From assembly GCF_054482595.1 (NCBI RefSeq), contig NZ_CM137008.1: a stretch of DNA of 64,000 bases, one strand, 5' to 3'. Under the pieces are notes generated by a model. It saw only the letters and a program-made list of their open reading frames with translations. It was not told where the DNA came from and did no database searches. The first letter of the stretch is position 1. Every line of letters starts with the position of its first letter. The translations under genes were made by a program, and so were the position numbers. Positions 42,382 through 64,000 of this stretch are shown one piece after another.

Positions 42382-42525
42382 CCTGACGGGTGAAATGAAT
42401 AAGGTTTATTGTCTGAGAGGCCTTTCACTGGCGAGCCACGCATTAAGCGGCTTTCCGGTAACAATGGCTGGGGCTGTATTTACCTTTGATATTAATAATG
42501 TGCAGAGAAACGCATGGTTTACTCC

Positions 42526-42936: not shown

Positions 42937-42951
42937 GATAGACTCCTTAAA

Positions 42952-43440: not shown

Positions 43441-43770
43441 TGTAAATATTCTTCCGTTGTAAATGGCGCTGGAAAATTTCTCATCAGTGAAACCTTCCGG
43501 AAGTTTCCCCCCCTTGTATGATGTATATCGCCAGTATTTTATTTCATCCCGGCTGTAATTTTTATATTCCCCGGCACGTGCAATAACGCTGACCAGAGAT
43601 ATAAGGCTCATTAATAACTTTACAGGTAATTTCATAATTAAATTTCCAGTGAGTGAATTGACAGGTGAGGGGTAAAACTTTCTCTCAGGTAATATATATC
43701 TGAAAATATTTTCAATAACACCAGACAGGAAAAACACCACCACAGGCGGTGGCGTTTCTTTGGGGCGTCT

Positions 43771-44841
43771 TTATTTAATCCGGGCCATCGCGTTTCTCAG
43801 TGCCAAATCTGCCTCTTCCGTTATATCCAGGCTTTTCTGCAATACCGCCTCTGACCGGGTCAGTGCCTGACGTGCTGCCAGCGGTTTCCGGATATGCTCC
43901 ATCGCCAGCATCGTGTCTTCATAGCCCTGCTGACGCCAGGCGTCGGTATGTGCCGATGTAAAACTGAGCAGACCGCCGCTGTTGCCACCATCACCTGCAT
44001 ATTTCAGCCTTTTCCGGGGACGGATCTCAAGGATTGTGGTGTCCGGAAAAGCCTGGCGATCCCATAAAGAACCGTCACTCAGATGCGTCACAATCACCAT
44101 ATTGCATCCGGCATCGACCAGAGGCGTCACAGGGGTATTTCCCTGCATATTTCGCCATCCTCCCATACCACCATCACCGAACATTGTCCCCTGAACCTCA
44201 CGGGGACGGAACAGCAGGGGCAGCGCGGCTGACGCAAGCAGAGCCTCTTTCTGCTGTCCGCGGGGCAGGCTCTGGATATGCTGAAAAACGGCGTTTTTCG
44301 TGGTTCCGACACCCAGTTCAGCACGAATGCAGTCAATAATATCCTGCATGCCCCCTTCTGTGGGGTACAGCGACACATACAGCGGTAGCCCGTCTGCCAG
44401 AGCATCAGTATCAAGATAATGATCCATCAGCGCTGTCAGGGGCTCATCTGACAACAACGGCTGAGCCATCAGATTGTCAAACCCGTTGATTGTCGATATA
44501 TGGCGAAGAAGCGTCGTAAGCAGTGCTCCTGCACGTCCGGGGATCTGGCAGAGGTTCATTGCCTGGAACAATTTTTTCAGCAATGAAAAGTAAACCAATC
44601 TGTTTACCGACAGCACCTGATTATTCCCCAGATGATCCCAGAGCGCCTCCAGGCGTACGGCAGCTTCTGACAGATCGGGAGAGGCCGCGATAATGGCACC
44701 ATTGAATGCGCCAATGCTGGCCCCTGAAACCATGCTGATCTGTGTACCACACTCTGCCAGTGCCTTAACCACTCCCGCCTGATAAGCGCCCACCGCCCCG
44801 CCACCGGACAGCACCAGCCCCGTTTTCATTTCTGTACTCAT
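43771..44841 (-). CDS. Patatin-like phospholipase
   Basis: 356 aa; Gly-rich oxyanion loop LVLSGGGAVGAYQAG, nucleophile elbow VSGASIGAF (GxSxG), catalytic Asp in FGDGGM (DGG); no signal peptide; start ATG overlaps the upstream stop (ATGA). Confidence 0.8.
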   Translation of the reverse strand: MSTEMKTGLVLSGGGAVGAYQAGVVKALAECGTQISMVSGASIGAFNGAIIAASPDLSEAAVRLEALWDHLGNNQVLSVNRLVYFSLLKKLFQAMNLCQIPGRAGALLTTLLRHISTINGFDNLMAQPLLSDEPLTALMDHYLDTDALADGLPLYVSLYPTEGGMQDIIDCIRAELGVGTTKNAVFQHIQSLPRGQQKEALLASAALPLLFRPREVQGTMFGDGGMGGWRNMQGNTPVTPLVDAGCNMVIVTHLSDGSLWDRQAFPDTTILEIRPRKRLKYAGDGGNSGGLLSFTSAHTDAWRQQGYEDTMLAMEHIRKPLAARQALTRSEAVLQKSLDITEEADLALRNAMARIK

Positions 44842-45743
44842 GCAGCCCCCTTCTGAAATATTTCATCGACCATACTTTCAGAGAGGCGTTCTGCAGAGCA
44901 GAGGCGAGGCATGCGAACCGGTAAGTGTTCTGCAGCCTGCGTGGTTGACCAGATCACCGGATGCTGCTCTTCACTGCACCAGTCTCCCAGCCAGTTAATC
45001 GCGTCATGCCACTCGTTATCTGCCTGCTCCCGGCCCTGACCACCAAGCCAGTCCAGAGTGTTCAGACGCACGGTTGCACTACCGCCACTCTCCTGTGCCA
45101 TCTGCGTTAATGCTTTATGTCTGAGAATATCCAGTAGCTGGTTAACCTGGCCTGTTTCGCCCTGACGTATCACATCACCAAACGCGCCCCAGCGAAGCTC
45201 TTCAAGTGCCACATAACAACGTCCGGCAGGGGAAAATGACGCATATCGCCCGGCGCTCCACCATGAGAATATCTGCTCAAGATGTAACTGCGCCCGCTGA
45301 ACCTGGTCAACACGGTGGAGTTTTTCTTCAAGATGATTCAGTTTATGGTGAACCTGATCGGCCAGGGTGAGTAACTGCTCCCGCGTATCTGCGGAATAAT
45401 GCGCCAGCCTGGCTGTATCACTGACCAGTGAACTGACCCTGTCGTTTACCCGGGTAATCGCGTAGTTTGTGGTGGCAAGTGACGTTGTCATCTCCGTCAG
45501 CCAGCGCAGGGACGCCTCAACGCCCTGTGCAAGCGACGCATTGATGGCATTCTGCCGTGCAGCGCCTTCGCCGGTCAGCCCCTCTTTTAAACGCCGGAAG
45601 AACGTGCGCTCTCCGGCCGTGCGGATATGCTCCTGTGCAACATCGATTCCGTTTGCGAAATCAACCACAAATTTTTCAGGAAGACAGGTGAGTACCTGAC
45701 ATACCCGGTTATCAGCAATTTGTTGAATAAATGGTGAAGTCAC
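44838..45743 (-). CDS. Helical/coiled-coil protein of unknown function, translationally coupled partner of the dynamin-like GTPase
   Basis: 301 aa, no nucleotide-binding motif; ATGA overlaps at both ends (45740-45743 and 44838-44841). Confidence 0.6.
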   Translation of the reverse strand: MTSPFIQQIADNRVCQVLTCLPEKFVVDFANGIDVAQEHIRTAGERTFFRRLKEGLTGEGAARQNAINASLAQGVEASLRWLTEMTTSLATTNYAITRVNDRVSSLVSDTARLAHYSADTREQLLTLADQVHHKLNHLEEKLHRVDQVQRAQLHLEQIFSWWSAGRYASFSPAGRCYVALEELRWGAFGDVIRQGETGQVNQLLDILRHKALTQMAQESGGSATVRLNTLDWLGGQGREQADNEWHDAINWLGDWCSEEQHPVIWSTTQAAEHLPVRMPRLCSAERLSESMVDEIFQKGAA

Positions 45744-48136
45744 AGCATTGTCTCCAGCTCTTCCCTCAGCGCCTTACTGTCAGTAATGAGCTCAGGAACC
45801 CTTTCATTTAATGCCTGAAGTCGCCCGGTAAGTCGTTCCTGCGCCTGCTGATCGCGTTTATGATCCTCAGAGCTCTGAATCAGCGTGTTACGCAGTTGTT
45901 CAACTTTCTCCCTGAATGCGCAGAAAAAGGCATCGATTTCCTGGCGGACGGGCTGGTTAATATCCTGCTCAATGGATGCCTGCAGCTCCCCGAAATATGC
46001 CCGGGTCAGTGACATAACTTCCTCTCTGACCTTGTTGATATTGATCACGCTGCGACTCACATCCTCGTCATAGTTTTCCCAGCCCAGGTCACTGGTGCCA
46101 AACCATCGACAAACGGTTCCCCATACGCCACTCTGCCGACGGCGACGGGTGACGGTCTCCGTTCTTTCCTCCATAAGCGCACTCAGATTTATTTTTACCG
46201 CGAGCCGGGTCTGTAACTGGCTGACTGCCGGAAAACTGATTTTTACGGTAAAGCCCTCATCCTCCAGGCGGGCATTGATGCGACCGGCAATGTTTTCTGT
46301 GGCGTACAGGGCCGTGCCACGAAAACCTGTTTCAATCCCGCTGACGATTTTCTCCAGCTCAGGCCGGAACTGTGCTTCAGCCTCACGGTGCAGGCTGGTC
46401 ACGGTCGATTCGATTTGCGTCATCAGTTCAAGGGCTTCCCTGCGATCACTGAATTTTATTTCGGGGCTGTCCGGGGCAAAATCTCGTTTCCTGTAATCCT
46501 CCCGGCCCTGGTTGTTGATACCGGACCATTGAGAAATTTTCCCCCATAATCCGGACTGAGACCTTCGTTGTTCTGCGTCTTCTTCCTCCAGCATTTGCTG
46601 TTCTTTGCGTTTACCGCTTCTGAAATAGTCATTCAGCTCCTCTTCCAGTGAGGTGCAGACCCCCGTCAGTAATTCCCGGGTTTTAGTATCGATCTCCTCC
46701 ATGGCCATTCTGACATCAGTGGTCATCTGCTCCTGACAGTCCGCGATTTCCCGGATATCCGCAAGCAGGCTGGTGATATGCGACTGCAGTGACTGAATGC
46801 TTTGCTGTAGCCCCTGATGGCGTAACAACAGGTATTCACTGATATTTTCTGCATTCTGCATCAGTTTTGCGGCGGCAGAGTCAACCGCCAGTGCCGCAGC
46901 TCTGGAATGTGAGCTCTGTATGACTTCCGTTATCAGTTGATCGATAAGTGAGCCTTCCCACAGGTCTGTCGCCCCTTCAGTTGCCAGTTCACTGTCTTTA
47001 CAGACGTATTCTTTTTTCATGCAACCGAAGGCACCTCTGATAAAATCATCGACCCAGGCTTCATCAACAGGAAGGGTTCCGTTTTTCCGTAACTCATGAA
47101 GCGCACGGTTAGCCAGGTATGCCTGGCGTGAGGATCCGGGATAAACGCGGGAGGCGGGCAGCACATCGCTGTTCAGCATTGCCGGAACTTTCTGGCGTAC
47201 GGCATCTGCCCCATCGCCATTGCGGTCTTTCTCATCAAATTTATTGACCAGTACAAACAGGCGGCCGGCTGATACGTCAGCAATGGCATTAAGCTCTTTA
47301 CGGACGTCTTCATCCGCTTTTGAGTTCATCTGGGTGTAATCCATCACAGCCAGAACCGCAGAGGCTTTCTGCAGTTGATCCCGCATCATCACTTCCATCT
47401 GCGGTTGTCCGGCCTCATTAGGGCCGGGGGTATCCAGCAGTGTGAGTGTTCCCTGGCATGCATCCATCCCCACCAGATGGCTGAATTCCACGTCGATCAC
47501 CGGCAGTTTCTGCACTTCTGCGTATTCATCAAAAGGAAATTCAGTCCCCATTGCCGCAGCAAGACGAACCAGATCGTTTAACGATGCCAGTCCGGTAAAG
47601 ATTTCCTCCTCCCCGTGGTATTCATTTTTGAGCCAGCCATCATCCGTCAGAATATCCAGCAGTTCGCGGGTATCCCCGGTTTGCTGCAGGGTCTGTGCGA
47701 CCTGCTGTCCTGCCGGGGTGGCGAGTTTTTCCTGCAGTGTGATTAATAAATTGCGGACAGGCTGAATATGTTCCAGATGGAGAACCGGCTCAGTTTTTCC
47801 GGGAACGTGGCGGATGAGCGTCGGTACAGAGGTCATGGGGCGGTTACGGTTAGGCAGAATTTCCTGCCCCACAATGGCATTGATGGTGGTTGATTTGCCT
47901 GCTTTCATCGTGCCGACAACAGCCAGCACCATCTCCCTGCGGGCGGTTTTGATTTGTTCGCCCTCCAGCTCCTCAATTCTTTTCAGTGCTTTCTGTTTAT
48001 CAAAAAGCAGTCTGTTTTCGTTCTTACTGTCAGATAACACATCTGGCTCCTCAACCATTTGCCGGAGCAGATTAATGTTCAGTTGCAAAAGTCGGTCGGC
48101 TTCATCACAAAGCAGGGCGATGTTCTTTTCGTGCAT
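45740..48136 (-). CDS. Dynamin-like large GTPase (bacterial dynamin-like protein family)
   Basis: 798 aa; G1 P-loop VVGTMKAGKSTTINAI, G3 LLDTPGPNE, G4 VLVNKFDEK, then about 500 aa of helical/coiled-coil sequence; AGGAAGG Shine-Dalgarno 7 nt upstream of the ATG. Confidence 0.8.
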   Translation of the reverse strand: MHEKNIALLCDEADRLLQLNINLLRQMVEEPDVLSDSKNENRLLFDKQKALKRIEELEGEQIKTARREMVLAVVGTMKAGKSTTINAIVGQEILPNRNRPMTSVPTLIRHVPGKTEPVLHLEHIQPVRNLLITLQEKLATPAGQQVAQTLQQTGDTRELLDILTDDGWLKNEYHGEEEIFTGLASLNDLVRLAAAMGTEFPFDEYAEVQKLPVIDVEFSHLVGMDACQGTLTLLDTPGPNEAGQPQMEVMMRDQLQKASAVLAVMDYTQMNSKADEDVRKELNAIADVSAGRLFVLVNKFDEKDRNGDGADAVRQKVPAMLNSDVLPASRVYPGSSRQAYLANRALHELRKNGTLPVDEAWVDDFIRGAFGCMKKEYVCKDSELATEGATDLWEGSLIDQLITEVIQSSHSRAAALAVDSAAAKLMQNAENISEYLLLRHQGLQQSIQSLQSHITSLLADIREIADCQEQMTTDVRMAMEEIDTKTRELLTGVCTSLEEELNDYFRSGKRKEQQMLEEEDAEQRRSQSGLWGKISQWSGINNQGREDYRKRDFAPDSPEIKFSDRREALELMTQIESTVTSLHREAEAQFRPELEKIVSGIETGFRGTALYATENIAGRINARLEDEGFTVKISFPAVSQLQTRLAVKINLSALMEERTETVTRRRRQSGVWGTVCRWFGTSDLGWENYDEDVSRSVININKVREEVMSLTRAYFGELQASIEQDINQPVRQEIDAFFCAFREKVEQLRNTLIQSSEDHKRDQQAQERLTGRLQALNERVPELITDSKALREELETML

Positions 48137-48193
48137 TATTTAACCTTCCTAAGACGCATTTTCATGACAACCACGGAGGAGGTCATTCACTAC

Positions 48194-48236
48194 AAACGAT
48201 CGTTTATAACGATCGATATGATAGTAACGATCGATG
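48194..48236. promoter_or_regulatory. Cluster of three GATC-containing AACGATCG boxes upstream of the dynamin operon (candidate Dam/OxyR phase-variation switch)
   Basis: aaacgatcgttt-ataacgatcgat-atgatagtaacgatcgatg; GATC at 48198, 48211 and 48229, 60-100 bp upstream of the dynamin start codon, in the slot corresponding to the yeeP-flu intergenic region. Confidence 0.4.
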
Positions 48237-48353
48237 TATTCTATTAACTTGAGAAACACAACGCAAGGGGACAACCCGGGTATGGCTGCGTTTGCATAGT
48301 GTTTTCATGGAGTTAAAAATCTGTAACAACAGCCTGGTACATCACCACCGGGT

Positions 48354-49226
48354 TCAGAAGAAAATCCAGTTCCATACCGCGCGGGCAACAGAGACCACCG
48401 AGTCACGGACGGCGCGCAGAACCGTGCGTGCAACAGAGGCAATGCAGACGCTCTCCGCCGTGTCAAATATCCGGTCCACCGCACCGGTAAACTGTTCACG
48501 GGCCTGAGACCGGACAGACTCCGTGCGCAGCTCGTCCTGCAGGCGGGTCATCAGGGGACTGGCGGCATGGTCGGGAAGTGCTGTCATGAGCGCACTGACC
48601 AGCGTATCCAGTTCCCAGCCGGTGCGGGCCGATACGGCAACAACCCGATGTACGGGCCGGAACAGACGGAATACCGCCTCCGTTTTTTCGCGAATGTTCT
48701 GTGCCTGTGCGGGAGAAGGCTGAATACCGGCCATATCCCATTCATGGCAGGGCTCCGTTTTATCGGCCTGCATCACCACAAACAGTACCCGCTGATGTCC
48801 CCGGTGCAGGATGTGTCGCCAGAAATACTCATCCACAGACAGGGCACGGTCATCGGCTTTAATCAGCCACAGTACCAGGTCCAGTTCGGGCAGAATGTCA
48901 CGGTACAGGGCTTCATACTCTGCATCCCTGTCCCGGCTCTCGCCCACCCCGGGCAGGTCAGTGATAACCATGCTGTGACCATGGCCATTCAGACGGAAGC
49001 GCTGCACTTCCCGGGTGCCGGCGTGAACATCACTGACCGGGGTGACCTCCCCCTGAAACAGCGCATTACAGAGTGAGGATTTACCGGCCCCGCTTTTCCC
49101 CATAATGCCAATCACGGGTTCGTGACTGGTGAGTTTGCGCAGATGTTCCAGGATGTGACGGGAAAGTGAGTAAGGCAGGGAGGAGAGCGGTTTTTCGATT
49201 GCCTCAATGGCATCAGACGGATTCAT
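48354..49226 (-). CDS. yeeP: YeeP/YfjP/YkfA-family small GTPase (island backbone)
   Basis: P-loop GIMGKSGAGKSSLCNAL, G3 ITDLPGVGE, G4 VMQADKTE; start set at MNPSDAIEAIEK (GGGAA Shine-Dalgarno), about 290 aa. Confidence 0.7.
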   Translation of the reverse strand: MNPSDAIEAIEKPLSSLPYSLSRHILEHLRKLTSHEPVIGIMGKSGAGKSSLCNALFQGEVTPVSDVHAGTREVQRFRLNGHGHSMVITDLPGVGESRDRDAEYEALYRDILPELDLVLWLIKADDRALSVDEYFWRHILHRGHQRVLFVVMQADKTEPCHEWDMAGIQPSPAQAQNIREKTEAVFRLFRPVHRVVAVSARTGWELDTLVSALMTALPDHAASPLMTRLQDELRTESVRSQAREQFTGAVDRIFDTAESVCIASVARTVLRAVRDSVVSVARAVWNWIFF

Positions 49227-49309
49227 ACATGTATTCCCGGTGAAAAAAGACAAAACCCCGCGCACCGGAAAGGTGGCGGGGGATTCACGGAAATAATATC
49301 TGTCTGAAA

Positions 49310-50473
49310 TTATCTGGAATCGATTTGGCTGTTCTGCCTGGTTGCCACCAAATCATGGTACGCCTGCTCAATCATTTCATTCAGCAGTTTTTTTGGGAGG
49401 ACACCACGACTTCGGGCAATACTTTCAAGCTGTTTGTGGATTTTTCCGGACAGTTTCAGAGGGACGGAACCATCAGCACGTTCATCACGCCTTTTTTGTT
49501 GCTCCCGGGCACTTTTCAGCTCATCAAGAAGAATCGCTTTATGCTGAATCCTGGGGGCCTGGAAGGAGACCTGCGTAAACTTCGCTCTGTTCCGTCTGGG
49601 ATTACTTTCCAGTAAAAACTGTACCTGTTGCTCATTCCAGCCCTCCCAGTTATCAAACGTGGCGCAGGCAAACCAGTATTTCTGCTCCGGGGTAAGGGGA
49701 TTCAGCGGGGTTCCCACACACCGGACCTGCATGGCGTTCCATAACCAGTCACACTGTTCACTGTCCCTGCTGTCCACCCACGAAAAGGGGGAGGGGTAAT
49801 CATTGTTTATGCTGGCCCATTCAGAGAATACTGAGTTGATAATCGTCCTCGTAGCCTCTGGTCCGGATTTCAGCAGGTAACTGGAGCAGAACCATATAAT
49901 TTCACGGTAGATTTTATCCGGATGCACGGTGCGCATCGGCTTTTCTCTGGGACCGGCAATCTTCGGTTGCGATGGAAACCCCGTGGCAAACCGCAGATGT
50001 TCCGGGGGCATTCCTGAACGTTTTTCAGGAATGGGTGTGAGTCCTGCGTTTCTGGTCTTTTCCGCTTGTCCGGTATTGCCTCCGGCCGGAGTGTTGTCGG
50101 GAGTATCTTCCGGAGGCGAGGTGTTTTCATTAGTTGGGGGAACAACAGCAGAACTGTCCATCTCCGGAATGGGTTGAGGGGCATAATCACTGTGGTAGCC
50201 AGGGGAAAGCGTTAAGTCCCGAAGGGTGACATCAGGTTCCGGGCAGTGAGTGCCACCGGGAGTGAACGGGAGTTGTTGCTTTTGGGAGAAAAATGTATTG
50301 TGAATGCGGGTATACAGCTGGAACAGAAAAAAATAAGATGCCCGTGGTTCTTTTTTTAACCACTGTGTATATTCCTCTATGGCACCGAGCTGTTGTTTGT
50401 GCCGTTTTACAGCATCGATATACGGACAGCTGGTGCAGATATCATCCAGTTCCTTTCCCACAATACACCTCAC
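49310..50473 (-). CDS. Hypothetical protein (Pro/Thr-rich linker; basic C-terminal helical region)
   Basis: 387-aa ORF with no recognisable family; no canonical ATG near the 5' end (the listed start is GTG), so the start is uncertain. Confidence 0.35.
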   Translation of the reverse strand: MRCIVGKELDDICTSCPYIDAVKRHKQQLGAIEEYTQWLKKEPRASYFFLFQLYTRIHNTFFSQKQQLPFTPGGTHCPEPDVTLRDLTLSPGYHSDYAPQPIPEMDSSAVVPPTNENTSPPEDTPDNTPAGGNTGQAEKTRNAGLTPIPEKRSGMPPEHLRFATGFPSQPKIAGPREKPMRTVHPDKIYREIIWFCSSYLLKSGPEATRTIINSVFSEWASINNDYPSPFSWVDSRDSEQCDWLWNAMQVRCVGTPLNPLTPEQKYWFACATFDNWEGWNEQQVQFLLESNPRRNRAKFTQVSFQAPRIQHKAILLDELKSAREQQKRRDERADGSVPLKLSGKIHKQLESIARSRGVLPKKLLNEMIEQAYHDLVATRQNSQIDSR

Positions 50474-51993
50474 CTGCTTTTCTCACATTTGCAGATTTTA
50501 AAAAAGCAAACAAAAACCTCCGTACATGATGTACAGAACAATCTACCAGGTAGTGGCGTCAGAAAACCTCCGGGCCGCCTGCACTTTCCGGAATGCGCCG
50601 GTTATGAAAAACCGGAAATTCAGTCTCTGTTGTAAGATGTACCCTCTGATACTACGTTTTCTCTGTGTATTTAACTCACTGTATTTATTGTCTTTTTAAG
50701 CTTGACTAATATTCTCCGGTCATAGTGTGCCGGATACACATCCCGTAAACTTCTCATTTTTATATAAAAATACCTGCACTCTCTTCAGCGCATCTGTCTC
50801 CTTTAAGTAAAAAATGTTTTTACGTATTGCTGTAAATTCATTTTAAATCAGTATATTACCTTGATATTGCTGTCTCCTGGTTTGATGCGTAATCGTTCTG
50901 CCTTTCTGGATGATTCTGGTGCTTCCGGGTGCATTCTCCTCTGCACATGCAACAGTTCGTCATCGCCACGCTCCCAAAAAGCATATAAAAACGAATCGAA
51001 TTTGATATTTTTTTCAATCGTTTTTCATAGGAATTTCGTAGGGTATTCTCCGCTATAACCTCCATATTTGCTGTCTTTTTCTTCATAAATCGTATGCAAT
51101 GTAGCCTGTCTGTCAAGACCTCTTCTCTGCTGTTGAGGAGACGATCTCATTTTTGGTCTTTTCCGGGAGAGAGGCTGTCAGATGAGCGAGCCGGATATAC
51201 TGTCAGAGGTACACCCCGTAGCAGACCTGTGCTCCCATTTCCGCGATCCGGAACCAACAACACCCTACGGTTAATACCATTTGAAGCGTCAGGTACTGCA
51301 GGAAGTTCCCCCCTGCGCGGACATCGGTTCCTGCCGACATCTCACAATACGGCCAGACTGTCATGCAGTAACACCCGCATGCGGTCTGCGGTTTTAAGCG
51401 CACTCTCCCGTTTTCAGTGCATCGATAATGCGTCATAGTAAGTCTGGGGGAAGTTACGGAATGCCTGTTAAGTGGTGCCGTGGGTGGAGACAGCTTACTT
51501 TTCTACAGCAACTGCAGTCATTCAGGATGATCAGGAGATATTCTGTCAATGTCACGATCCTGCCATTTTCGTACCCGCTAAGATACTTCCGTTACTGATG
51601 CTGTCCGCTTTTCACCATTTCATCCTCACTGACAGGCGTTGCGTTTTGGGTCATCACCACAGCTTTACGTTTCTCTTTTAACCGGTAACGCTCTCCTTTG
51701 ATATTCAGCGTGGTTGAGTGATGCAGCAGTCAATCCAGGAGCGCTGTTGTCCGGCAACCACCATATCAACTTCTTCCCGGGTGTGGCGGAGAGGTGGTAT
51801 CCTGGCTGAGTTTCGAAGCGAACCGTTCTTTTTGACGGGCGCATTTTACGTCCGGGCTGAATGTAGTAACGCGGCATGGAACGTCGGCCCGTATACCATT
51901 GCCTTAATCTCCGCAAAGATAACCTCGTCATTCCGGACATTCTCTGCCAGGCATATGTCGATGTAATCCATAAACGATTTCAGCTTACCCCTT

Positions 51994-53951
<1,958 letters not shown>

Positions 53952-54813
53952 TTTGTGGCCAGTCTTTCTGGCTGGCGGTTCAGGGGATGTTTTCTGGTTA
54001 TCGTGTACCACAAAGCAGGGATATTGCCCCGATAGTCACATTTCAGATTGATCGCGGTCTGAAGATGTGGCACTGAGGTAACGTGCTGGTGTCACTGGTA
54101 TTGCTGAAGTTATGGTTTTTCGGGGTCAGGTGAGCCTGTTGTGTGTATGCTTTTTGTTCAGGTCAGAGGGGGACTGTGTGGACAGCGGCTTTTGTCTCCG
54201 GGCATTCACGCCTGAACGATGAATGCGATTTTCAGCAATATTTGTCTTTGTGACACTCTCTGGTTGAGAAGCTAATGCGCGCCCCTGTTTCCACAGAGAA
54301 TGAGGCTTGCCATCAGCCGAAACATCAGTATTCCACGCCATACAGACGGCGCCTGACCATGTGCTGATGCAGGTAAAATGTTTCACTACAACTGTTCGGG
54401 TTGCTATGCAACGAAACAGCGATTCTCACGATCTTTAACTGCAACGTTTTTCCGCCTGAAAGCTGACTGCCTCCTGCTGAGGTGGGAGGCTATGATTCAG
54501 TGCGTTTATAGTCTCCGGGGTATGCATGTACCGGAGCATACCATTTCTGGTGGATAACAAGCCGGCACATTCAGACTGCAGTGAAGATGGAGGCACCTGG
54601 TTGTGAAGAACGTTTCTGCCCGTGGCTGCTTCGCATCATCAATGGTATTCATACCCGCTCAGAAATGACCGGGTGCTGAAGCCCTCCGTTATCGCGCAGT
54701 ATAATGACGTATATGATCTGTGGACGAGTGAGCGGCGTGCCTGATGTACGCCGCTATTACTGTATTTTACCACAGGGCTGGTTTTCTGCTGCCAGCCCTG
54801 TGGTTCTCAGACA

Positions 54814-55416
54814 TCAACTGTGAGCGGCATCAACCGATGTACGGTATGCCATAAGCACGTACTGATCCATCAGATTTGTCAGTGGTTCACTCTGACCCTG
54901 ACGTGCAATGATCCATTGCTCCAGATCTTTTTCTGATTTGTGTTTCAGGTTTTTCGTCCAGTCGTCAAGGCTGTTTCCGGTCATTAAGTCAAGCCAGCAG
55001 AGCCAGACCAGTTTGAGACGTAACTCCGTGCCGCCAAACTGACGGAAGAGGCTGATCAGTTTGTTTGCCAGAGAATGTTGCTTCAGGCGCTCACATTCAG
55101 ACAGCAGGATCCCTTCCAGCATCGGATGATGAACCAGCAGGTGTTCGCTGGTGCATAAATTCACCACCAGATCATCATCCAGGGACGGGGAGCTCCGTTT
55201 GTCCGGACCATAAATCAGCCGGTGCAGACTCTGGGGAACGATGGCAATCTCCGGTTTTTCGCCATTGAATGACACCCACCCGGGCGTCAGATTATGGAAA
55301 TAGTAGATATTCGGATGACACACGCCCCATGATACGGCGTGCCGGGTGAAGCCGGTCAGCCATTTCTGGTAGTTTTCATGGAGCAGCTCGTAACGGGTCT
55401 GATACTGTTGTTTCAT
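54814..55416 (-). CDS. Hypothetical protein
   Basis: ORF 54814..55431; likely start MKQQYQTRYELL with GAGGAA Shine-Dalgarno; no family recognised. Confidence 0.35.
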   Translation of the reverse strand: MKQQYQTRYELLHENYQKWLTGFTRHAVSWGVCHPNIYYFHNLTPGWVSFNGEKPEIAIVPQSLHRLIYGPDKRSSPSLDDDLVVNLCTSEHLLVHHPMLEGILLSECERLKQHSLANKLISLFRQFGGTELRLKLVWLCWLDLMTGNSLDDWTKNLKHKSEKDLEQWIIARQGQSEPLTNLMDQYVLMAYRTSVDAAHS

Positions 55417-55509
55417 TTTCATATTCCTCACGGGGGATAACAGGCAGCAGAGCGCCGCCGGCAGGCCGGAGATTGCGTCTGCTGTGGGCGAAGGGTTAGT
55501 GGTTAAAAA

Positions 55510-55716
55510 TTACAGACGGGACTGTGCAATACGCGCCTGCAGCCAGGCTTCCACTTCACTTTTCAGCCAGCGGGAGCTGCGCCCCATTTTGATGGGCGCA
55601 GGAAAGCCCCCATCTTTGATGAGTTTGTCAAACCACTTATCGGTAAGGCCGGTCAGTTGAGTGATAAACGCCATGTCGACCATCTGGTCATCCATCAGCG
55701 AAACTGGGGTAGCCAT
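55510..55716 (-). CDS. alpA: AlpA-family phage/island transcriptional regulator (HTH)
   Basis: 68 aa from MATPVSLMDDQMVDMAFITQLTGLTDKWFDKLIKDGGFPAPIKMGRSSRWLKSEVEAWL, the AlpA signature; the longer ORF to 55920 is an upstream extension through a poly-C tract. Confidence 0.6.
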   Translation of the reverse strand: MATPVSLMDDQMVDMAFITQLTGLTDKWFDKLIKDGGFPAPIKMGRSSRWLKSEVEAWLQARIAQSRL

Positions 55717-55880
55717 GAGAATGTTCCTCCGGATGTTGTTAAACCAGCCGGTGTGGTCATGAAAACAGCGCGCCACCTTCACCGGCATAACAACCGGGGA
55801 GAAACGTAAAAAATAATCGGGAATGTGGCTGTCCGGAGATAAACGGGGGGATTGCGATGGCAGAGCCGTAGCGGAATCCC

Positions 55881-55894
55881 GGGGGGGGGGGGGG
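55881..55894. repeat. Homopolymeric G tract, 14 nt (C14 on the minus strand)
   Basis: cccgggggggggggggggttgcg at 55878-55900, about 165 bp upstream of the alpA-like start. Confidence 0.9.
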
Positions 55895-56845
55895 TTGCGA
55901 AAAGATGCTTCCGCACGCACGCGCGATAAAGAGGGGATAGTTTTCGTGAGGACAGGGAGAGAAGCAGGCGTTCTGATAATTGCAGAGTTGTTTTCGGAGG
56001 TGGTTACAGTGAGTCAGCCCGTTCCTGGCGAGCAGGAGACTGATATCACCGATGGGATAAGGTTGTCTGATTGGTATTATAAATATAAGAAGTCATCAGA
56101 GAGTAACGTAAAGGATTTGCCAGAATAACCTAAGAGAGTAAATCTCTCCGGTAACAGAGCGCTGTGAAGCATTCTGTATTAGAGTGCAGATACATGAACG
56201 CTGATGCGTAAAATCAGCAGTGACACGCCAGCTCCCCCTATGCCCATTCCTGTATAAGACATGAACTGAGTGTATTAATGCTTCTGCCCTGAGACTGAGC
56301 CGGTGAGTGAGGGGCTGAGAAATCCCTCTTGACACAGCTCTAACCAGAAATACTTCCCCGGTTGTTGCGGTGCGTCCGGATCCCCGATAACGGAACACTA
56401 AGGCTGTATTGCGGGACACCGGGTAAGTAGCAGCCCGTAAGGCGTTCTGTCAACGCCAGAAAAAATGATTTCCCACACGCGTTATAGACTCACTCCTGTG
56501 GACCTGGAAGCCCGTAACTCTGCGGTTGCCCACTGACTGACGGAACTGACCGCAAATTTTACGAGTGCGTGCTGGGCTTCAGTCTGGTCACCTGAGCGTT
56601 CGGTAACGGAGGCGCGGGCGGTAATAGGCTGATTTTCAGGTATTACCGGCTTACAGCGTGTGGTTGATATTGAGGGGCTGTGAGTTTCGCGTATTTGTCA
56701 GAAACCCAGACGAGTTTTCCTGTATGGGACGAAATAAGGCAGCGGCAATACCTGGAAAAATTTAATATGGTATGAAGGAGAACCTGTCGGTTACGCTTAA
56801 TATACCCGGTACACTGTCAGCTCAGGGGATACATGAACCGTTATC

Positions 56846-57049
56846 TCACCAGCTACACAGTATATACACACTGACGCTGACAGTAGTCAGCAGGACCACA
56901 ATAATCAGTGCCAGCAGTATGGTAACGATACGGTCTGTATTCCGGTAATAGCCGAAGGGGTCGACAGAACCACAATACGGGCAACACACTGTATTATGAG
57001 TAATCGCGTTTCCACAGTCCCTGCACTTCTTTTTGCGTATCACCATCAC
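56846..57049 (-). CDS. Small zinc-ribbon membrane protein (hypothetical)
   Basis: 67 aa; CRDCGN...CCPYCGS zinc-ribbon pair then one TM helix (IVTILLALIIVVLLTTVSVSVYIL); GGAGG Shine-Dalgarno 6-7 nt upstream of the ATG. Confidence 0.3.
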   Translation of the reverse strand: MMVIRKKKCRDCGNAITHNTVCCPYCGSVDPFGYYRNTDRIVTILLALIIVVLLTTVSVSVYILCSW

Positions 57050-57245
57050 TCCCTCCTCACAGCCTTACCCGTAACCGGTTTTTTACATTAAAAAAACAAC
57101 GCTGAAAATTCAACCGTCAGTCCGGAGACGACCGTTCGGGTTATCACAGAGTGCCTGAGACAGTGTCCTGCCGGAGGTCACTTCAGGGACTCTGCGCATT
57201 TTTTACGACGTGGCTATTCCGTATGAACCATACGGAGATTTAACC

Positions 57246-57815
57246 ATGACCTACAAATACAACCCCTTCTGGCAGCAACGTATTCGTGAGACGGTGCGGC
57301 ACGCACTGAATGTTCATCCCCGCCTGACGGCATTGCGGGTTGACCTGCGTTTCCCGGATGTACCGGCAGCAACGGACGCAGCTGTGATATCCCGCTTCAT
57401 CAATGCCCTGAAAGCCCGAATCGACGCTTACCAGAAACGTAAGCATCGGGAAGGTAAACGCGTGCATCCCACAACCCTGCATTACGTCTGGGCCCGGGAG
57501 TTTGGGGAGTGCAAAGGTAAAAAACACTATCACCTGATGCTGCTGGTTAACCGGGATACCTGGTGTCGTGCCGGTGATTACCGTGCTCCGGGATCACTGG
57601 CCGGGATGATTAAACAGGCGTGGTGCAGTGCCCTGGGAGTGGATGTCGGGTGCCATGCCACGCTGGTGCATTTCCCGGCCTGGCCGGCGGTGTGGCTGGA
57701 ACGCGATGATGACACTGGCTTTCAGCAGGTGCTGGAACGTGCTGACTATCTGGCGAAGGAACATACCAAAGCTCACTGCACCGGTGAGCGCAATTTTGGC
57801 TGTAGCCGGAGTTGA
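57246..57815 (+). CDS. YagK/YfjJ-family protein (inovirus Gp2-like domain)
   Basis: 190 aa from MTYKYNPFWQQRIRETVRHALNVHPRLTALRVDLRFPD; GGAG Shine-Dalgarno 8 nt upstream; family assigned from memory. Confidence 0.5.
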   Translation: MTYKYNPFWQQRIRETVRHALNVHPRLTALRVDLRFPDVPAATDAAVISRFINALKARIDAYQKRKHREGKRVHPTTLHYVWAREFGECKGKKHYHLMLLVNRDTWCRAGDYRAPGSLAGMIKQAWCSALGVDVGCHATLVHFPAWPAVWLERDDDTGFQQVLERADYLAKEHTKAHCTGERNFGCSRS

Positions 57816-58074
57816 GCACGACTGGCGCGCCAATACCCGGCAAACCAAAAGTATGGGTTGTTGTCTGGCGGCAACGATGTATCCACTCGCCCACTGACTG
57901 TTTTTTACGTCAGTGTTCCATTGTGTGACAACCACAGTGCTGTAACAGCAACCAGCCTGCTTTACCCAAACTCCAGTCCAGATTTTAACTGAACCGCCAT
58001 TCACACCCTGACCACGCTGCCCGTACCGGGACGGCTGTTGCCTGCGTGTCGTCTGGCGGCTGAGGAATATGACT

Positions 58075-58476
58075 ATGTACGCAAAATCCTTTATCGCTCT
58101 TGATGGCAACGGACGTCTGACGGGCGCCCGTACTGCACAGGCCGCACCTTATGCTAACTACACCTGCCACTTGTGTGGCAGTGCACTCAGATACCATCCG
58201 CAATACGACACTGAACTTCCCTGGTTTGAACACACTGACGACAGGCTGACAGAGCACGGTCAACAGTGCCCTTATGTCAGGCCGGAGCGCAGAGAAATAC
58301 AGTTGATTAAACGTCTGCAGCAATTCGTACCGGATGCCTTACCCGTGGTGCGTAAAGCCAGCTGGCACTGCAGACAATGTCACCACGATTATTATGGGGA
58401 GCGGTACTGCACACACTGCCAGACCGGAGGATTCAGTATTCCCCGGACAACTCAGGAGGAAATATGCGAATTCTGA
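58075..58476 (+). CDS. Zinc-ribbon protein, paralog 1 (hypothetical)
   Basis: CHLCGS...PWFEH...CRQCHH...CTHCQTG; two CxxC pairs and a shared PWFEH motif. Confidence 0.4.
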   Translation: MYAKSFIALDGNGRLTGARTAQAAPYANYTCHLCGSALRYHPQYDTELPWFEHTDDRLTEHGQQCPYVRPERREIQLIKRLQQFVPDALPVVRKASWHCRQCHHDYYGERYCTHCQTGGFSIPRTTQEEICEF

Positions 58477-58871
58477 ACTGTTATATGGCGAATGACAGCA
58501 AAGGCCATTTTGTTACGGCGAAAGAAGCAGCGAAGCACAACCGCCAGGACGTTTTGTGCTGTGTGTCCTGTGGATGCCCGTTAACACTTCAGCGGGGCAA
58601 TGACGGACAACCACCGTGGTTTGAACATGACCAGATGACTGTCGCTGAGAAAATCCTGCTGCGATGCACCTGGCTTGACCCGGCAGAGAAAGAGGCCCGT
58701 CGTTTGCATCTGCAGGGTATGACGGTTCCGGATTATACGGTGAAGGTGAGAAAGTGGTTTTGTGTGATGTGTGACGAAAATTATGAGGGGGAAAAGTGCT
58801 GCCCGAGTTGTGGTACCGGGGTATACAGCAGGGAGGGGGGGCAGGAGGGCAACTGGAAGGATAGGAACTGA
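58464..58871 (+). CDS. Zinc-ribbon protein, paralog 2 (hypothetical)
   Basis: From MRILNCYMAND; CVSCGC...PPWFEH...CVMCDE...CPSCGTG; same motif architecture as the upstream gene; 13-nt overlap. Confidence 0.4.
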   Translation: MRILNCYMANDSKGHFVTAKEAAKHNRQDVLCCVSCGCPLTLQRGNDGQPPWFEHDQMTVAEKILLRCTWLDPAEKEARRLHLQGMTVPDYTVKVRKWFCVMCDENYEGEKCCPSCGTGVYSREGGQEGNWKDRN

Positions 58872-59154
58872 GCGGTTCAGTCGCGGAAATCAGTTGCAGA
58901 GCTGTAATGATATCTCCGGGAGTGCTGCGTTGGTAGGGGCATCCCGGGATAGAGAAATTTTAGCACTTTGCCCTGAATGATTGTAGACGTCCCGAGTACT
59001 CGTACCGGTCTGAGTTATTACAGTTAGATATTCACTTTTTCTCCCGCATACTTCACATCTGTCAACGACGGATGAAAAGTGGTTCTTCCGCAACCTGGGT
59101 GGAAGAAAATGGATGAAACTTTCTGGCGAACAAGGATCTAAGCTGTTTTAAGTT

Positions 59155-60774
59155 ATGGGCAACGCAATGCACTCTCTTAAGACACTTCTACAGTTACCTT
59201 GCGGATGGCGATGCAGTCGACAAATTATTAGCTCTGACGGTATAACCCTCCATCTCCACGGAAAACGCAAAACAGCACAATGTCCTGAATGCTTTAAGCG
59301 TAGCGACTCTGTTCATAGTTGTCGTCGGCGCCGGATACAGCATCTACCCTGCTCAGGGCAGACGCTATGGCTTGTATTTTCCGTCCGCCACTGGTACTGC
59401 CGTAACCCGGCTTGTTCACGTAAAATTTTTGCCGAGTCGCTTGCTCCCTTCGCCAGTTCACACCAGCAGTCTTCACAGGCGTTACAAAATTAACAACGTC
59501 AACTGGGATTAATAGCTGGAGGTGAGGCTGGAAAACGGGCTGCAACGGCAGTGGGTCTCCGTTGCAGTGCTGATACTCTTCTTCGCAGGCTTATCAATAC
59601 CCCGGAGACGAAACAGTCAGGCGCGCCTCATGTCGGTATTGATGAGTGGGCGTGGCATCGGGGCCACTGCTGCGGTATGTTAATAGTCAATCCTGATACT
59701 CACCGTCCCCTCGTCCTGCTTCCCGGCCGTGATCAGCGTACGCTGGCGACCTGGTTCAGAAAATATCCGGAAATACAGGTTGTCTCGCGTGATCGCAGTG
59801 GAGTCTATGCGACAGCAGCACGTGAAGGTGCACCTCAGGCCAGACAGGTGGCCGATCGATGGCACCTGCTAAAAAATATTGGTGATGAGCCTGAACGAAT
59901 GATGTACAGACATATGCCTCTGATACGTCTTGTTGTCAGAGAGTTATCACTGAAGAAATCACCTGAGCCAGAAATATCTGTGCCTGTAGCATCGCTCCGT
60001 CGTCTGGAACGCCTTAAACAGCACATCCGCAAAAAACGGCATCAGCGTTGGACAGAGGTTATGGCCCTGCATAACAAGGGATGTAGTTTCAGGGAAATAT
60101 CCCGTATTACAGGCCTGTCGCGAGTGACAGTCAGTCGCTGGGTGGGTTCAGGAACATTCCCTGAAATGTCAACCAGGCCTCCAAAGCGAGGGCTTCTGGA
60201 CCCATGGAGGGAGTGGTTAAAAGAGCAACGAGAATGTGGTAATTATAACTCCGGCCGGATATGGCGGGAAATGGTGGCCAGGGGGGTTACAGGCAGTGAA
60301 ACCATCGTCAGGGATGCTGTTGCCAAATGGCATAAAGGCTGGATCCCACCGGTTACTACTGCCGCAAGACTTCCTTCAGTGTCACGGGTAAGCCGCTGGT
60401 TGATGCCCTGGAGAATAATCAGGGGTGAAGAAAATTATGCTTTCCGATTTATTAGTCTGATGTGTGAAAAAGAACCGGAGTTGAAAATAGCGCAGCAACT
60501 GGTACTCGAGTTCTACCGTATTCTGAAAACCTAAAATAAATCACAGCTAAGCAGCTGGTTCACTCGGGTCCACGAAAGCGGCTCAGCAGAACTTCGGTGC
60601 GTAGCTGCGGGGATGGAAGCTGATGCTGCGGCTATATGTGAGGCAATCAGCAGTCGCTGGAGTACTGGTGTTGTCGAAGGTCATGTAAATCGCCTGAAGG
60701 TGCTGATACGCCAGATGTATGGTCGAGCCGGACTTGAACTACTTAGGCGGAGGGTAATGAGTCCACTGGCATGA
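59155..60774 (+). pseudogene. ISL3-family transposase, degenerate (split over three reading frames)
   Basis: Fragment 1 (59155-59493) zinc-finger N-terminus (CPECFKR...RRIQHLPCSGQ...RHWYCRNPACSRKIFAE); fragment 2 (59551-60534) DDE region (VGIDEWAWHRGHCCGML...VVSRDRSGVYA...ADRWHLLKN); fragment 3 (about 60540-60774) C-terminus (VVEGHVNRLKVLIRQMYGRAGLELLRRRVM). Confidence 0.5.
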
Positions 60775-60844
60775 AAATCTTCACCTAGGTTGAGGAAGAG
60801 CCACTTTTGCACTGTTCGTGACAGTATGGCCTTTATGTACTCAC

Positions 60845-61146
60845 TTTGTTACCGGTAGCTGGATCATCACTACCGTGCCGCAAATGGTGGTGAACAGCAT
60901 CAATTGTGGAATGAATGTTGCCGAAGCGACCAATGCGCCTCGTTTCCACCATCAGTGGTTGCCGGACGAGCTGCGTGTTGAAAAGGGTTTAGTCCGGATA
61001 CGCTCAAGCTGCTGGAAGCAAAAGGTCAGAAAGTGGCGCTGAATGAGGCGATGGGCAGCACGCAAAGCATTATGGTTGGGTCGGATGGTGAGTTGTACGG
61101 CGCATCCGACTCGCGCTTGGTGGATGATTTAACGGCGGGGTATTAA
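60845..61146 (+). pseudogene. ggt: Gamma-glutamyltranspeptidase 3' remnant with internal frameshift
   Basis: Encodes ...VTGSWIITTVPQMVVNSINCGMNVAEATNAPRFHHQWLPDELRVEKG, then after a 1-bp frame change FSPDTLKLLEAKGQKVALNEAMGSTQSIMVGSDGELYGASDSRLVDDLTAGY*; abuts the ISL3 remnant. Confidence 0.65.
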
Positions 61147-61153
61147 TTGACAT

Positions 61154-61176
61154 CCCCCGGCGCAATGTGCCGGGGG
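61154..61176. terminator. Bidirectional terminator-like hairpin between convergent genes
   Basis: cccccggc-gcaatgt-gccggggg, 8-bp GC stem. Confidence 0.4.
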
Positions 61177-61185
61177 ATAATGGTT

Positions 61186-62220
61186 TTATGCGGTCAATAA
61201 TCGTCCGGGATTATCGATACAGAGTTTTTTGAGGATCGTTTTATCGACGCCGCGCTCCGCCAGATAGGCCAGAAAAACATCTGGAACAAATCCCCAGCCA
61301 TTACCGCCATTTTTAGCCCACATTTGTTTAAGGAAGACATCGTGGCTGAGAACAAGCTGATCGGCGTATCCCAACTCAATGAGATGAGCGACGGCATCGG
61401 CAGTCTCCTGCACCCCTGGCGCTATTCCCTCTTTCGGGAAGGTAATGTCTAGGCCAATCATGTCGAATTCCAGCCAGACACCTTTATCAAGCATTTTCCG
61501 CTGATACGCCACGTCTTTTCCTGACGGATCCGAGTGTGCGAGAGAGACTTTATTTGGCGAGACGCCCATTTCACCTAACACAATGTCGAGTACTTCATCA
61601 CCGCGACGAAGCCAGCCCGGCATGTGAATATTCATCGCCACATGAGGATTGTTAATCTGTGCCAGCGAGGCAGCCCGCAAGCTGTTATGCTCGGCTTCGG
61701 TAAATGTCGGTGAGACACCTATTTCACCGATCATTCCGGCACGAATATCCGTATCGCCAATCCCTTGATTCAATTCTTTATCGATCGTTGTCGCTAGTTC
61801 ATCAACCGTTTTATGAATTCTCTGGCTTTCAAATTTTTCCAGGTAGGGACCGGAGGAAGCAACAATATTCAGACCTGTTTTTAATGCGACTTCTCGTAAT
61901 GCCTGCGCATCTCGTCCGATAGACTCAGACCCTGTGGCATCAACAATGGTGCGACCACCGAGCGAGATAAAGTTATTAATTTCGAAGATCACATCTTCAA
62001 TAGGTTTGCGGTCCATATTATCAGCGCAGCAATAAGGATCGTGTTTTAATGCCCACTGGATTTCTGCCGTGACTTTTTTATCAACAAGCCGTTGTGAAAA
62101 AGGATAGCAAGGAGCATCCACAACAGAGGAAAGATCGTTGAACAGATGTTCATGAGGAAGTGTTAGCCCCATATCTTCACGGGCGACGGGGCCCGTCACA
62201 GTTTGTAGATAATCTTTCAT
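61186..62220 (-). CDS. Phosphotriesterase-family (PTE/Php-like amidohydrolase) protein
   Basis: 344 aa; N-terminal metal-binding HxH (GLTLPHEHLF) and TIM-barrel hydrolase layout. Confidence 0.6.
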   Translation of the reverse strand: MKDYLQTVTGPVAREDMGLTLPHEHLFNDLSSVVDAPCYPFSQRLVDKKVTAEIQWALKHDPYCCADNMDRKPIEDVIFEINNFISLGGRTIVDATGSESIGRDAQALREVALKTGLNIVASSGPYLEKFESQRIHKTVDELATTIDKELNQGIGDTDIRAGMIGEIGVSPTFTEAEHNSLRAASLAQINNPHVAMNIHMPGWLRRGDEVLDIVLGEMGVSPNKVSLAHSDPSGKDVAYQRKMLDKGVWLEFDMIGLDITFPKEGIAPGVQETADAVAHLIELGYADQLVLSHDVFLKQMWAKNGGNGWGFVPDVFLAYLAERGVDKTILKKLCIDNPGRLLTA

Positions 62221-62222
62221 GA

Positions 62223-63188
62223 TTATACCTCCATTTTCTTCATTGTTTTCGAGGCTCTGTATTCCGGAATAGTGGTAACAATTGCACCGACCAGTGCAAA
62301 CAGTGTTCCGATGATCGTGACCAGATAAACGGTATTGCCCAGCGATGGAATTAATACGTCAATCAATACTGATCCCAGTAACTGGCCCGCCGTTGAAGCA
62401 ACCCCCAGCATCAGTAACCCAAGACCTCTGACCAAAATGGCCATTAAACCGATAGACATTAGTCCAAGCGGGCCGCCAAGATACATCCACCAGACATCTG
62501 GTAATTGAACAGTGACGTGCCCTAATGCGACACGAATAGCTAGCGCTGTGCCTAAAACACAAAATCCAACGATGAAATTCCAGGTGATTGAAACCAGCAT
62601 GGATCCCGTAGCTTCAGCTACTTTTGCATTTCCAGCGGGCTGCCATCCTGCAAGCAAACCAGCTAAGAACGGAAGAATGGCAAGTAAAATGAAAGAGGTA
62701 GAATGCCACTGCGGTGACACAACAAAAATCGTAGCAATAACCGCAAATAATGCACCGATGATGCGATAAGGGGTAAAGTATTTTTTCTCGTCGACACCGA
62801 TACCAAAGCGATCGCAAAGTAAACCAGACAGCAATAGCGCGGAGATCAGTGCGGTCTGAAACGTTGCGACCCCGAGTGCGCTGGCTGATGCGCCTTCAGA
62901 AAATACCACCATCGCTCCACAGAGACCGGCAAACCAGTTCCAGAGAGGAACTTTTCGGTTTTTAATCAGAGAAGGAATTGCCGCAAATTGTTGCCGGGTT
63001 TCTTTTCGCGCCATAATAATAAAAAACATCACGACTAAACCACTGGCAAAGGAGATAACTGCGCATGCATTACCGTCCTGTAACCAGTGACCTAATTGAC
63101 CATTCACCGCTGATTGCATAGGGGAGAGCATACCCGCAAGAATCGTGGCAAGCATCCATAAGGGAGTTGAGTACTTATTCTTTTTCAT
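62223..63188 (-). CDS. Polytopic inner-membrane protein (putative transporter)
   Basis: 321 aa, about 10 hydrophobic segments, internally duplicated appearance; 2-bp gap to the upstream gene. Confidence 0.5.
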   Translation of the reverse strand: MKKNKYSTPLWMLATILAGMLSPMQSAVNGQLGHWLQDGNACAVISFASGLVVMFFIIMARKETRQQFAAIPSLIKNRKVPLWNWFAGLCGAMVVFSEGASASALGVATFQTALISALLLSGLLCDRFGIGVDEKKYFTPYRIIGALFAVIATIFVVSPQWHSTSFILLAILPFLAGLLAGWQPAGNAKVAEATGSMLVSITWNFIVGFCVLGTALAIRVALGHVTVQLPDVWWMYLGGPLGLMSIGLMAILVRGLGLLMLGVASTAGQLLGSVLIDVLIPSLGNTVYLVTIIGTLFALVGAIVTTIPEYRASKTMKKMEV

Positions 63189-63244
63189 ACATCAATCCTT
63201 CTATTATAGTAAATGGAGTAACTGGTGTTACCCCATTATTATTA

Positions 63245-63976
63245 TTATCTTGCAATATGAGTCAGTATATTTACCCACAACGCGGTATAGAACGGCCAGG
63301 ACATAAACTGCTGTGTACCCCAGTGCGGTGAACAGTCACTCATAAAGCAGGCTATTTTCCCGTTGTGATAGTTACCAAAGACCAGTAATGGATCGTTGTT
63401 TATTGTTAATACCACCTCAGCATTTTCTTTAGCGATCGCCCGGTTATAACCTAGGAAAAAAGGATATTCAGAGAACCCTTTAATAACCGGATGGTCAGGT
63501 TGTGATGGCTGTGCAATAACCCCCTCTGGTTTTTCGACACGATCGTCACCATCTAACATCGTAACCGGGAGCACATCAGCCAGAACTGTATTTTTATAAT
63601 TGGCTTTTGCTTCAATTCCCATGAATGAGAGATAGCCGCCAATCATCAATAACCCACCACCGTTATTCACATATTCTTTAATCAGTTCGAGAGCGTTTGG
63701 TTTTATGCGAAGCTGATAAAAAGTATCATTTTGTAGCAGGAAAGTATTACTACCAATATCACTAATAACGATGGCATCATATTGTTCTAACTGTGCCACA
63801 TCTTCAGGGAAGGCAATTTGTACCGTATGTGCCGGCATATAGGTGACATCTACCTGACTATTTTTCAGACATTGGAGTAACCAGGTCGCACCTTCTTCAT
63901 ATTTACTTGAGGTAAAACTGTCATATCCTTTTGAATGAATCATATGAATATGCCAGGATTCTCCAATAAAGAGCAC
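63245..63976 (-). CDS. Hypothetical protein, possible class-I glutamine-amidotransferase-like fold
   Basis: 243-aa ORF with YDAIVISD...GGGLLMIGG; frame is open to the window end, so the true start may be GTG 63976, ATG 63943 or beyond the window. Confidence 0.35.
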   Translation of the reverse strand: MLFIGESWHIHMIHSKGYDSFTSSKYEEGATWLLQCLKNSQVDVTYMPAHTVQIAFPEDVAQLEQYDAIVISDIGSNTFLLQNDTFYQLRIKPNALELIKEYVNNGGGLLMIGGYLSFMGIEAKANYKNTVLADVLPVTMLDGDDRVEKPEGVIAQPSQPDHPVIKGFSEYPFFLGYNRAIAKENAEVVLTINNDPLLVFGNYHNGKIACFMSDCSPHWGTQQFMSWPFYTALWVNILTHIAR

Positions 63977-64000
63977 CTTTAGTGATTTTTTGGTGTTATT

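Follow-up and report, generated by a model that had tools for sequence, protein, structure and literature searches.

The locus at 59155-61146 raises the question of how the remains of a transposase came to lie directly against the last part of a gamma-glutamyltransferase gene (ggt) within an E. coli island, and whether either piece still has a function. RefSeq labels 59155-60774 as 'ISL3 family transposase, internal stop' and 60854-61146 as 'gamma-glutamyltransferase, frameshifted; incomplete; missing N-terminus', i.e., both features are of known kinds and are already pseudogenes in that annotation. We consider it probable that 59155-61146 is a fossil rearrangement junction without present function, and that it contains the cut edge of a ggt-side block captured in a CP4-44-type island. 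The consequence is small, namely a corrected description of the transposase damage (nonsense codons, not frameshifts), a name for the element (ISEc38) and an explanation for the presence of the ggt fragment.

In this region the window, i.e., the whole 64-kb stretch of DNA that was analyzed, is 100% identical to complete E. coli chromosomes. The locus is a variable island between tmaR (yeeX) and cobU, which is the position of the cryptic prophage CP4-44 in K-12. CP4-44 and the island have in common this site as well as yeeS, yeeT, cbeA, cbtA, yeeW and yoeA-type TonB receptor relics. However, flu and yeeR are found in CP4-44 of K-12, which has neither the ISEc38 relic nor the ggt stub nor the block of four metabolic genes which follows the stub. 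To the left of the junction lies CP4-44-type backbone, with an AlpA-like regulator, a YagK/YfjJ 'inovirus Gp2 family' protein and two DUF7828 zinc-ribbon genes. The GC content of this backbone is 0.50-0.58, compared to 0.42-0.50 in the metabolic four-gene block on the right. Backbone genes on one side, a metabolic block on the other and the contrast in GC agree with the proposal of the first-pass annotation that island segments of different origin meet here. Among 5,426 complete E. coli genomes, 2,587 contain at least 80% of 58900-61300 and 2,786 contain the IS, and the junction was located at tmaR-cobU in every locus inspected. The features are not due to chance, because sequence that is identical or nearly so recurs in over 2,500 complete E. 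coli genomes.

The left part of the junction is a full-length element of the ISL3 family, ISEc38, at 59060-60823 on the + strand (1,764 bp), recognized by its identity to plasmid copies and by matching ends. Over this interval (21-1784 of the query) it is 95.1-95.2% identical at nucleotide level to copies on E. coli F-type plasmids annotated as 'ISL3-like element ISEc38 family transposase'. Such a value is near the threshold of about 95% identity that ISfinder applies to isoforms. Alignment to ISL3 elements had been suggested as a check, and it identifies the relic as ISEc38 over its full length. The limits of the element, TGTCAACG at the start and CGTGACA at the end, are the same in the window and in three independent plasmid contexts, which gives the length of 1,764 bp. 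The terminal inverted repeats (repeat I1) at 59059-59101 (left, + strand) and 60782-60824 (right, - strand) coincide with these homology limits, and their arms of 43 nt are 77% complementary and 1,680 nt apart. The right repeat includes GAAGAGCC, the complement of the GGCTCTTC-type motif at the termini of ISL3 elements.

The relic thus resembles ISEc38, the name used by ISfinder and NCBI, in length, ends, inverted repeats and gene layout, and also in protein architecture, which comprises a zinc ribbon, an ISL3 DDE domain and an inserted HTH region. It differs in having two nonsense codons and about 40 amino-acid replacements, several of which affect conserved residues of the DDE region, and in occupying one fixed chromosomal site instead of variable ones, with no target duplication seen. 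Target-site duplications of ISL3 elements are typically 8 bp. The flanks in the window, TTCACATC and GTATGGCC, are not repeated, and no duplication was found in the three plasmid contexts of ISEc38. Since the plasmid copies also show none, the missing duplication is neutral with respect to a rearrangement.

The transposase pseudogene at 59155-60774 (+ strand) comprises 540 codons in a single frame without indels, and its translation contains two internal stops in addition to the normal terminal stop. Its motifs had been described as spread over three frames and the gene as frameshifted, neither of which agrees with our results. The three ORFs at 59155-59493, 59551-60534 and 60613-60774 share one frame, and no gaps are needed across the element to align it with the intact copy on plasmid pE1246_1. 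The only inactivating lesions are in-frame nonsense substitutions: TTA in intact ISEc38 is TAA at codon 113 (59491-59493, + strand), and CAA is TAA at codon 460 (60532-60534, + strand). The stop at codon 113 is specific to the sub-lineage of the window, and the stop at codon 460 is found in all chromosomal copies examined. As these two TAA codons break the transposase, the element is a relic and non-autonomous. Its recognition as an ISL3-type transposase holds, given the 95% nucleotide identity to ISEc38 over 1,764 bp and the Pfam domains, which are Zn_ribbon_ISL3 (E 4.7e-8; 33.7 bits vs a cut-off of 25.5) and DDE_Tnp_ISL3 on two ORF pieces (E 9.5e-16, and 1.9e-3 for the C-terminal piece). An intact relative of the transposase scores 374 bits on NCBIfam transpos_ISL3, for which the cut-off is 180. 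Relative to the plasmid gene there are 78 nucleotide differences with a dN/dS of 0.35.

Between the end of the IS and clear ggt sequence are 29 nt (60824-60852, no strand) which align ambiguously. These may be scrambled ggt, in which codons ~477-483 would have lost the 12 nt for 'PGGS'. The ggt 3' fragment follows at 60853-61146 (+ strand) and covers residues ~484-580 of 580 in two frames. Compared to K-12 ggt (b3447, glutathione hydrolase proenzyme), it is 92.5% identical at nucleotide level over 295 aligned positions, i.e., the last ~98 codons, with 21 mismatches and one gap, and the stop codon at 61146 marks the precise end of the homology. The match to the GGT protein in tblastn comprises residues 477-580 and reaches back to 60833. 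Profile searches also detected the fragment, with Pfam G_glu_transpept at E 2.8e-10 (profile positions 420-465 of 512) and NCBIfam PRK09615 at E 5.7e-56 (positions 485-581; 190 bits vs a cut-off of 990). The Pfam match and the identity to K-12 ggt confirm the C-terminus noted earlier, which ends in LTAGY and the stop and extends from ~60833/60853 to 61146, and the suggested alignment to full-length ggt shows that the fragment is ggt-derived.

A 1-bp frameshift had been placed near 60990, and it corresponds to one A lost from the A4 run at 60981-60984 (+ strand), where K-12 and all outgroups are one base longer. At this site, directly before 'ggtttagtccgg', K-12 has GAAAAAGGG and the window GAAAAGGG. 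With the frameshift repaired, nine amino acids differ from K-12 ggt, and third codon positions account for 13 of the 21 mismatches; part of the divergence is therefore older than the inactivation. In addition to the shifted frame, the stub is unlike K-12 ggt in that only residues ~477/484-580 remain, in its different 3' flank, and in its place in an island ~1.5 Mb from the native gene. It has neither the large subunit nor the start of the small subunit. The autoprocessing and catalytic threonine of GGT opens the small subunit and is Thr391 in E. coli. Because this threonine and the whole large subunit are missing, no active enzyme can be made from the stub.

The left flank of the IS (58849-59059, no strand) consists of 211 nt of non-coding, locus-specific DNA which is single copy across 2,848 genomes, and matching to other CP4-type islands ends at ~58848. 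Tblastn did not detect ggt similarity in this flank, nor a second ggt piece anywhere in the 64-kb window. Queries with 58560-59059 or 58849-59059 recovered no empty (pre-insertion) site, as all matches either were this locus or ended at the zinc-ribbon gene. A simple insertion would leave ggt on both sides of the element. As the left flank is non-ggt, we infer that a deletion or recombination took place at the IS.

On the right, the stub is followed by a hairpin with a T-run (61152-61178, no strand; 12-bp stem with 9 GC pairs, I13), which is likely a shared terminator between the stub and a convergent PTE-family (phosphotriesterase) gene. The latter is intact (61186-62220, - strand; Pfam PTE E 7.5e-47) and is the first gene of what we regard as an imported block. 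It is followed by a DMT_YdcZ-family membrane protein gene (62223-63188, - strand; Pfam E 3.3e-46), which is collinear with Citrobacter/Salmonella, and by a GATase1_like gene (63245-63976, - strand; Pfam E 1.2e-111), listed as an ORF of 243 aa and as a CDS of 759 nt in RefSeq. According to the annotation of identical loci (L001 and L102), the block runs beyond the end of the window to a PfkB/DeoR gene and then to an IS66-family relic. The cargo is thus flanked by ISEc38 on the left and an IS66-family relic on the right, and this pair does not make it a composite transposon. Rfam at gathering thresholds gave no match in 54000-64000.

The same genes lie beside ggt in other genera. In three Citrobacter loci (L014, L016 and L017), the PfkB/DeoR, GATase1-like, DMT and PTE genes face a full-length ggt of 580 aa with yhhA and ugpQ behind it, and this ggt-yhhA-ugpQ order is that of the native ggt locus, which K-12 also has. 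The S. enterica subsp. diarizonae locus (L015) contains the same four genes and the 3' part of ggt, where the stored locus ends. These native neighbourhoods and the E. coli block are alike in gene order, orientation and hairpin position over ~4.5 kb, although the letters of the stem differ. A single collinear alignment to Citrobacter/Salmonella covers ~4.47 kb at ~76% identity, from 60853 to ~95 nt upstream of the PfkB/DeoR gene, and the PTE-family protein is 85-88% identical at amino-acid level to its Citrobacter and S. diarizonae orthologues. Unlike the E. coli block, the native neighbourhoods have a complete ggt and no IS. The 3' flank of ggt in K-12 (yrhB) is unrelated to the sequence downstream of the stub. 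Since the fragment, the terminator hairpin and the four genes are collinear with a native ggt locus, we regard the stub as the end at which an imported piece of chromosome was cut, with the IS at this cut.

The first-pass annotation offered a different explanation, in which a second, complete ggt paralog once resided here, was truncated by the insertion of ISEc38, and decayed in place together with the element. In agreement with this, the IS end is within 29 nt of ggt sequence and both elements are pseudogenes; that the junction consists of a dead ISL3-family IS and a decayed ggt 3' fragment is correct. Nevertheless, we find the explanation unlikely. Single-copy DNA unrelated to ggt borders the IS on the left, no other ggt piece exists in the window, and the 3' flank and neighbours of the stub match the native ggt locus of other genera and not an island paralog. 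The distribution of the junction in E. coli also argues against it. A chimeric query, in which the 400 nt of K-12 ggt that precede the cut were joined to window positions 60853-61500, was required to be covered to at least 80% at a single place, and a longer ggt joined to the PTE-family gene was found in none of the 5,426 complete E. coli genomes. Likewise, all exact-protein contexts of the PTE-family gene had the same truncated junction or additional IS damage. The intact arrangement, which was to be looked for in related genomes, was found in Citrobacter, where complete ggt lies beside the PTE-family gene.

The donor of the imported segment looks Escherichia-like, because the stub (~295 nt) is 92.5% identical to E. 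coli ggt compared to 81-83% to Citrobacter/Salmonella. Over the same stretch, K-12 ggt is 83-84% identical to Citrobacter/Salmonella (BLAST). Escherichia was absent among the best 80 loci listed in a search with the PTE-family protein covering one genome per species. Separately, gene conversion by the resident ggt is a process that could inflate the similarity between stub and E. coli.

The higher identity to E. coli ggt would also fit a stub that is a partial duplicate of the resident gene (K-12 b3447) copied into the island. This origin appears quite improbable to us, as the divergence of 7.5% compares to ~2% or less between junction copies across E. coli lineages. Moreover, the K-12 match stops at the stop codon, after which the hairpin and the genes are Citrobacter/Salmonella-like and do not resemble the yrhB flank, and several positions in the stub are in the Citrobacter state, e.g., GGAATGAAT. 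If the segment instead was imported, the stub and its four neighbours might be the only trace in E. coli of an ancestral Escherichia ggt neighbourhood, carried as cargo from an unsampled Escherichia-like lineage. In addition, the relic might still serve as a patch of homology for recombination between plasmid and chromosome or as a substrate for a transposase acting in trans. We put both forward as tentative suggestions, more doubtful than the rearrangement itself.

If 59155-61146 is a fossil rearrangement junction, its history could be as follows. About 4.5 kb of chromosome from an Escherichia-like native ggt neighbourhood would have become cargo in the CP4-44-type island at tmaR-cobU. The imported part would start at ggt codon ~480, take in the terminator and the PTE-family, DMT and GATase1-like genes, and stop a short way upstream of PfkB/DeoR, with ISEc38 at the cut end inside ggt and the IS66 relic at the opposite end. 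ISEc38 would have inserted into or beside ggt. Through an IS-associated deletion or recombination, ggt would then have lost its 5' 1.45 kb, and the IS would have come to adjoin the backbone. The order of insertion, deletion and transfer is our reconstruction and is not readable from the sequence. The decay that followed is documented by the copies compared. CAA>TAA arose at codon 460 of the transposase and the ggt stub lost one A of its A-run, and both lesions predate the split of the compared E. coli lineages. The lineage-specific lesions, i.e., those at codon 113, at codon 88, the O26 insertions and ISEc23 in strain H2, came last.

The relative age of the lesions was assessed by aligning ten copies from chromosomes, among them ST131 and O26. 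None of the ten differs in the junction, in the stop at codon 460 or in the ggt frameshift, and because these are common to all copies, the event is old, as had been suggested. Other lesions vary between lineages. Position 59492 is A in the window, L007 and L013, and T in the seven other chromosomal copies and in ISEc38. ST131 has a stop of its own at codon 88, small insertions occur near 60280 in both O26 and strain 07_3986, and in strain H2 ISEc23 is inserted inside the ggt stub. In O26 the PTE-family gene is also truncated. The dN/dS is 0.54-0.78 among chromosomal copies, where counts are small, vs 0.27-0.44 between chromosomal and plasmid copies. Together with the distribution of lesions, these values form the pattern of a long-dead element that drifts neutrally.

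A transposase still in use, either as a domesticated truncated regulator of 459 aa or through readthrough of TAA, would be compatible with the stop at codon 460 being kept in all copies and with the 459-aa ORF that is called in lineages without early stops (L012). However, we judge continued use to be highly unlikely, and domestication is rejected because the lesions upstream of codon 460 (codons 113 and 88, and the insertions near 60280) are independent and the dN/dS of 0.54-0.78 among chromosomal copies is near neutral, small as the counts are. In addition, conserved residues of the DDE region have been replaced (R172C, Y173C, T175M and L180P), and no sigma-70-like promoter was detected in 58800-61400. 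Sequencing or assembly errors as the source of the stops and the frameshift have a negligible probability and were ruled out, since the same sequence recurs in numerous complete genomes that were sequenced independently (100% identity over 2.4 kb in at least 21, and 99% or more in 1,291 records) and the lesions are phylogenetically structured.

As a fixed relic, the junction can conveniently serve as a neutral marker when the history of the tmaR-cobU island is traced. ISEc38 is mentioned in 28 papers of the literature searched, of which the ten listed are genome surveys of E. coli and Enterobacterales. A fixed relic in about half of complete E. coli genomes could plausibly explain some of the 'ISEc38' calls in such surveys.

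In the transposase (539 aa) of ISEc38, an ISL3-family insertion sequence present here as a dead relic, the ISL3 DDE domain is interrupted by an insert of approximately 130 residues (window 59950-60450; L003:1596-3215 among the compared loci). By profile, this insert matches the N-terminal helix-turn-helix region of IstA transposases of the IS21 family (NCBIfam transpos_IS21 positions 2-104, E 1.6e-16). On this match, the ISEc38 transposase is an ISL3 enzyme that has borrowed a DNA-binding module. The chromosomal relic is also found at 97.7-99.8% identity in records labelled as plasmids in the plasmid collection (H79-H81; 1.0-4.9 Mb), one of which bears the label Klebsiella pneumoniae. Wrong labelling of chromosomes or chimeric assembly probably accounts for these records.

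Damage at the junction, where the relic lies beside the 3' fragment of ggt, is still accumulating in other E. coli strains. In strain H2 (L100), the ggt stub is interrupted by ISEc23 (IS66 family) and the PTE-family gene is cut by IS1. O26 RM10386 (L093) has a PTE-family gene cut short by an IS3 relic, and an IS110 element lies between its two DUF7828 zinc-ribbon genes.

A hairpin (61152-61178) separates the ggt stub from the PTE-family gene. The Citrobacter and Salmonella hairpins match it in position, and this equal placement despite differing stem letters suggests a conserved two-way terminator. The PTE-family gene belongs to a four-gene block (61186-64000 and beyond) together with DMT_YdcZ, GATase1_like and a PfkB kinase fused to a DeoR HTH. 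Across genera (L014-L092), the gene order of the block is kept in Citrobacter, Salmonella diarizonae, Klebsiella spallanzanii, Budvicia, Providencia and Proteus, and many Actinobacteria have relatives of its PTE protein at 44-64% identity.

To the left of the ISEc38 relic are two adjacent, overlapping paralogous genes (58069-58871), each encoding DUF7828 with a zinc ribbon at the C-terminus (Pfam E ~1e-30), which are preceded by a YagK/YfjJ-type gene (57210-57815). The pair following a YagK/YfjJ-type gene is a recurrent island module. Further upstream are an IS100 (IS21 family; about 52084-53885) and island cargo (42500-50500). Among the cargo, genes for a dynamin-family protein (798 aa), a GTPase-family protein, an RdcB-family diguanylate cyclase regulator and a patatin-like phospholipase share a single orientation and could form a defence or signalling module.
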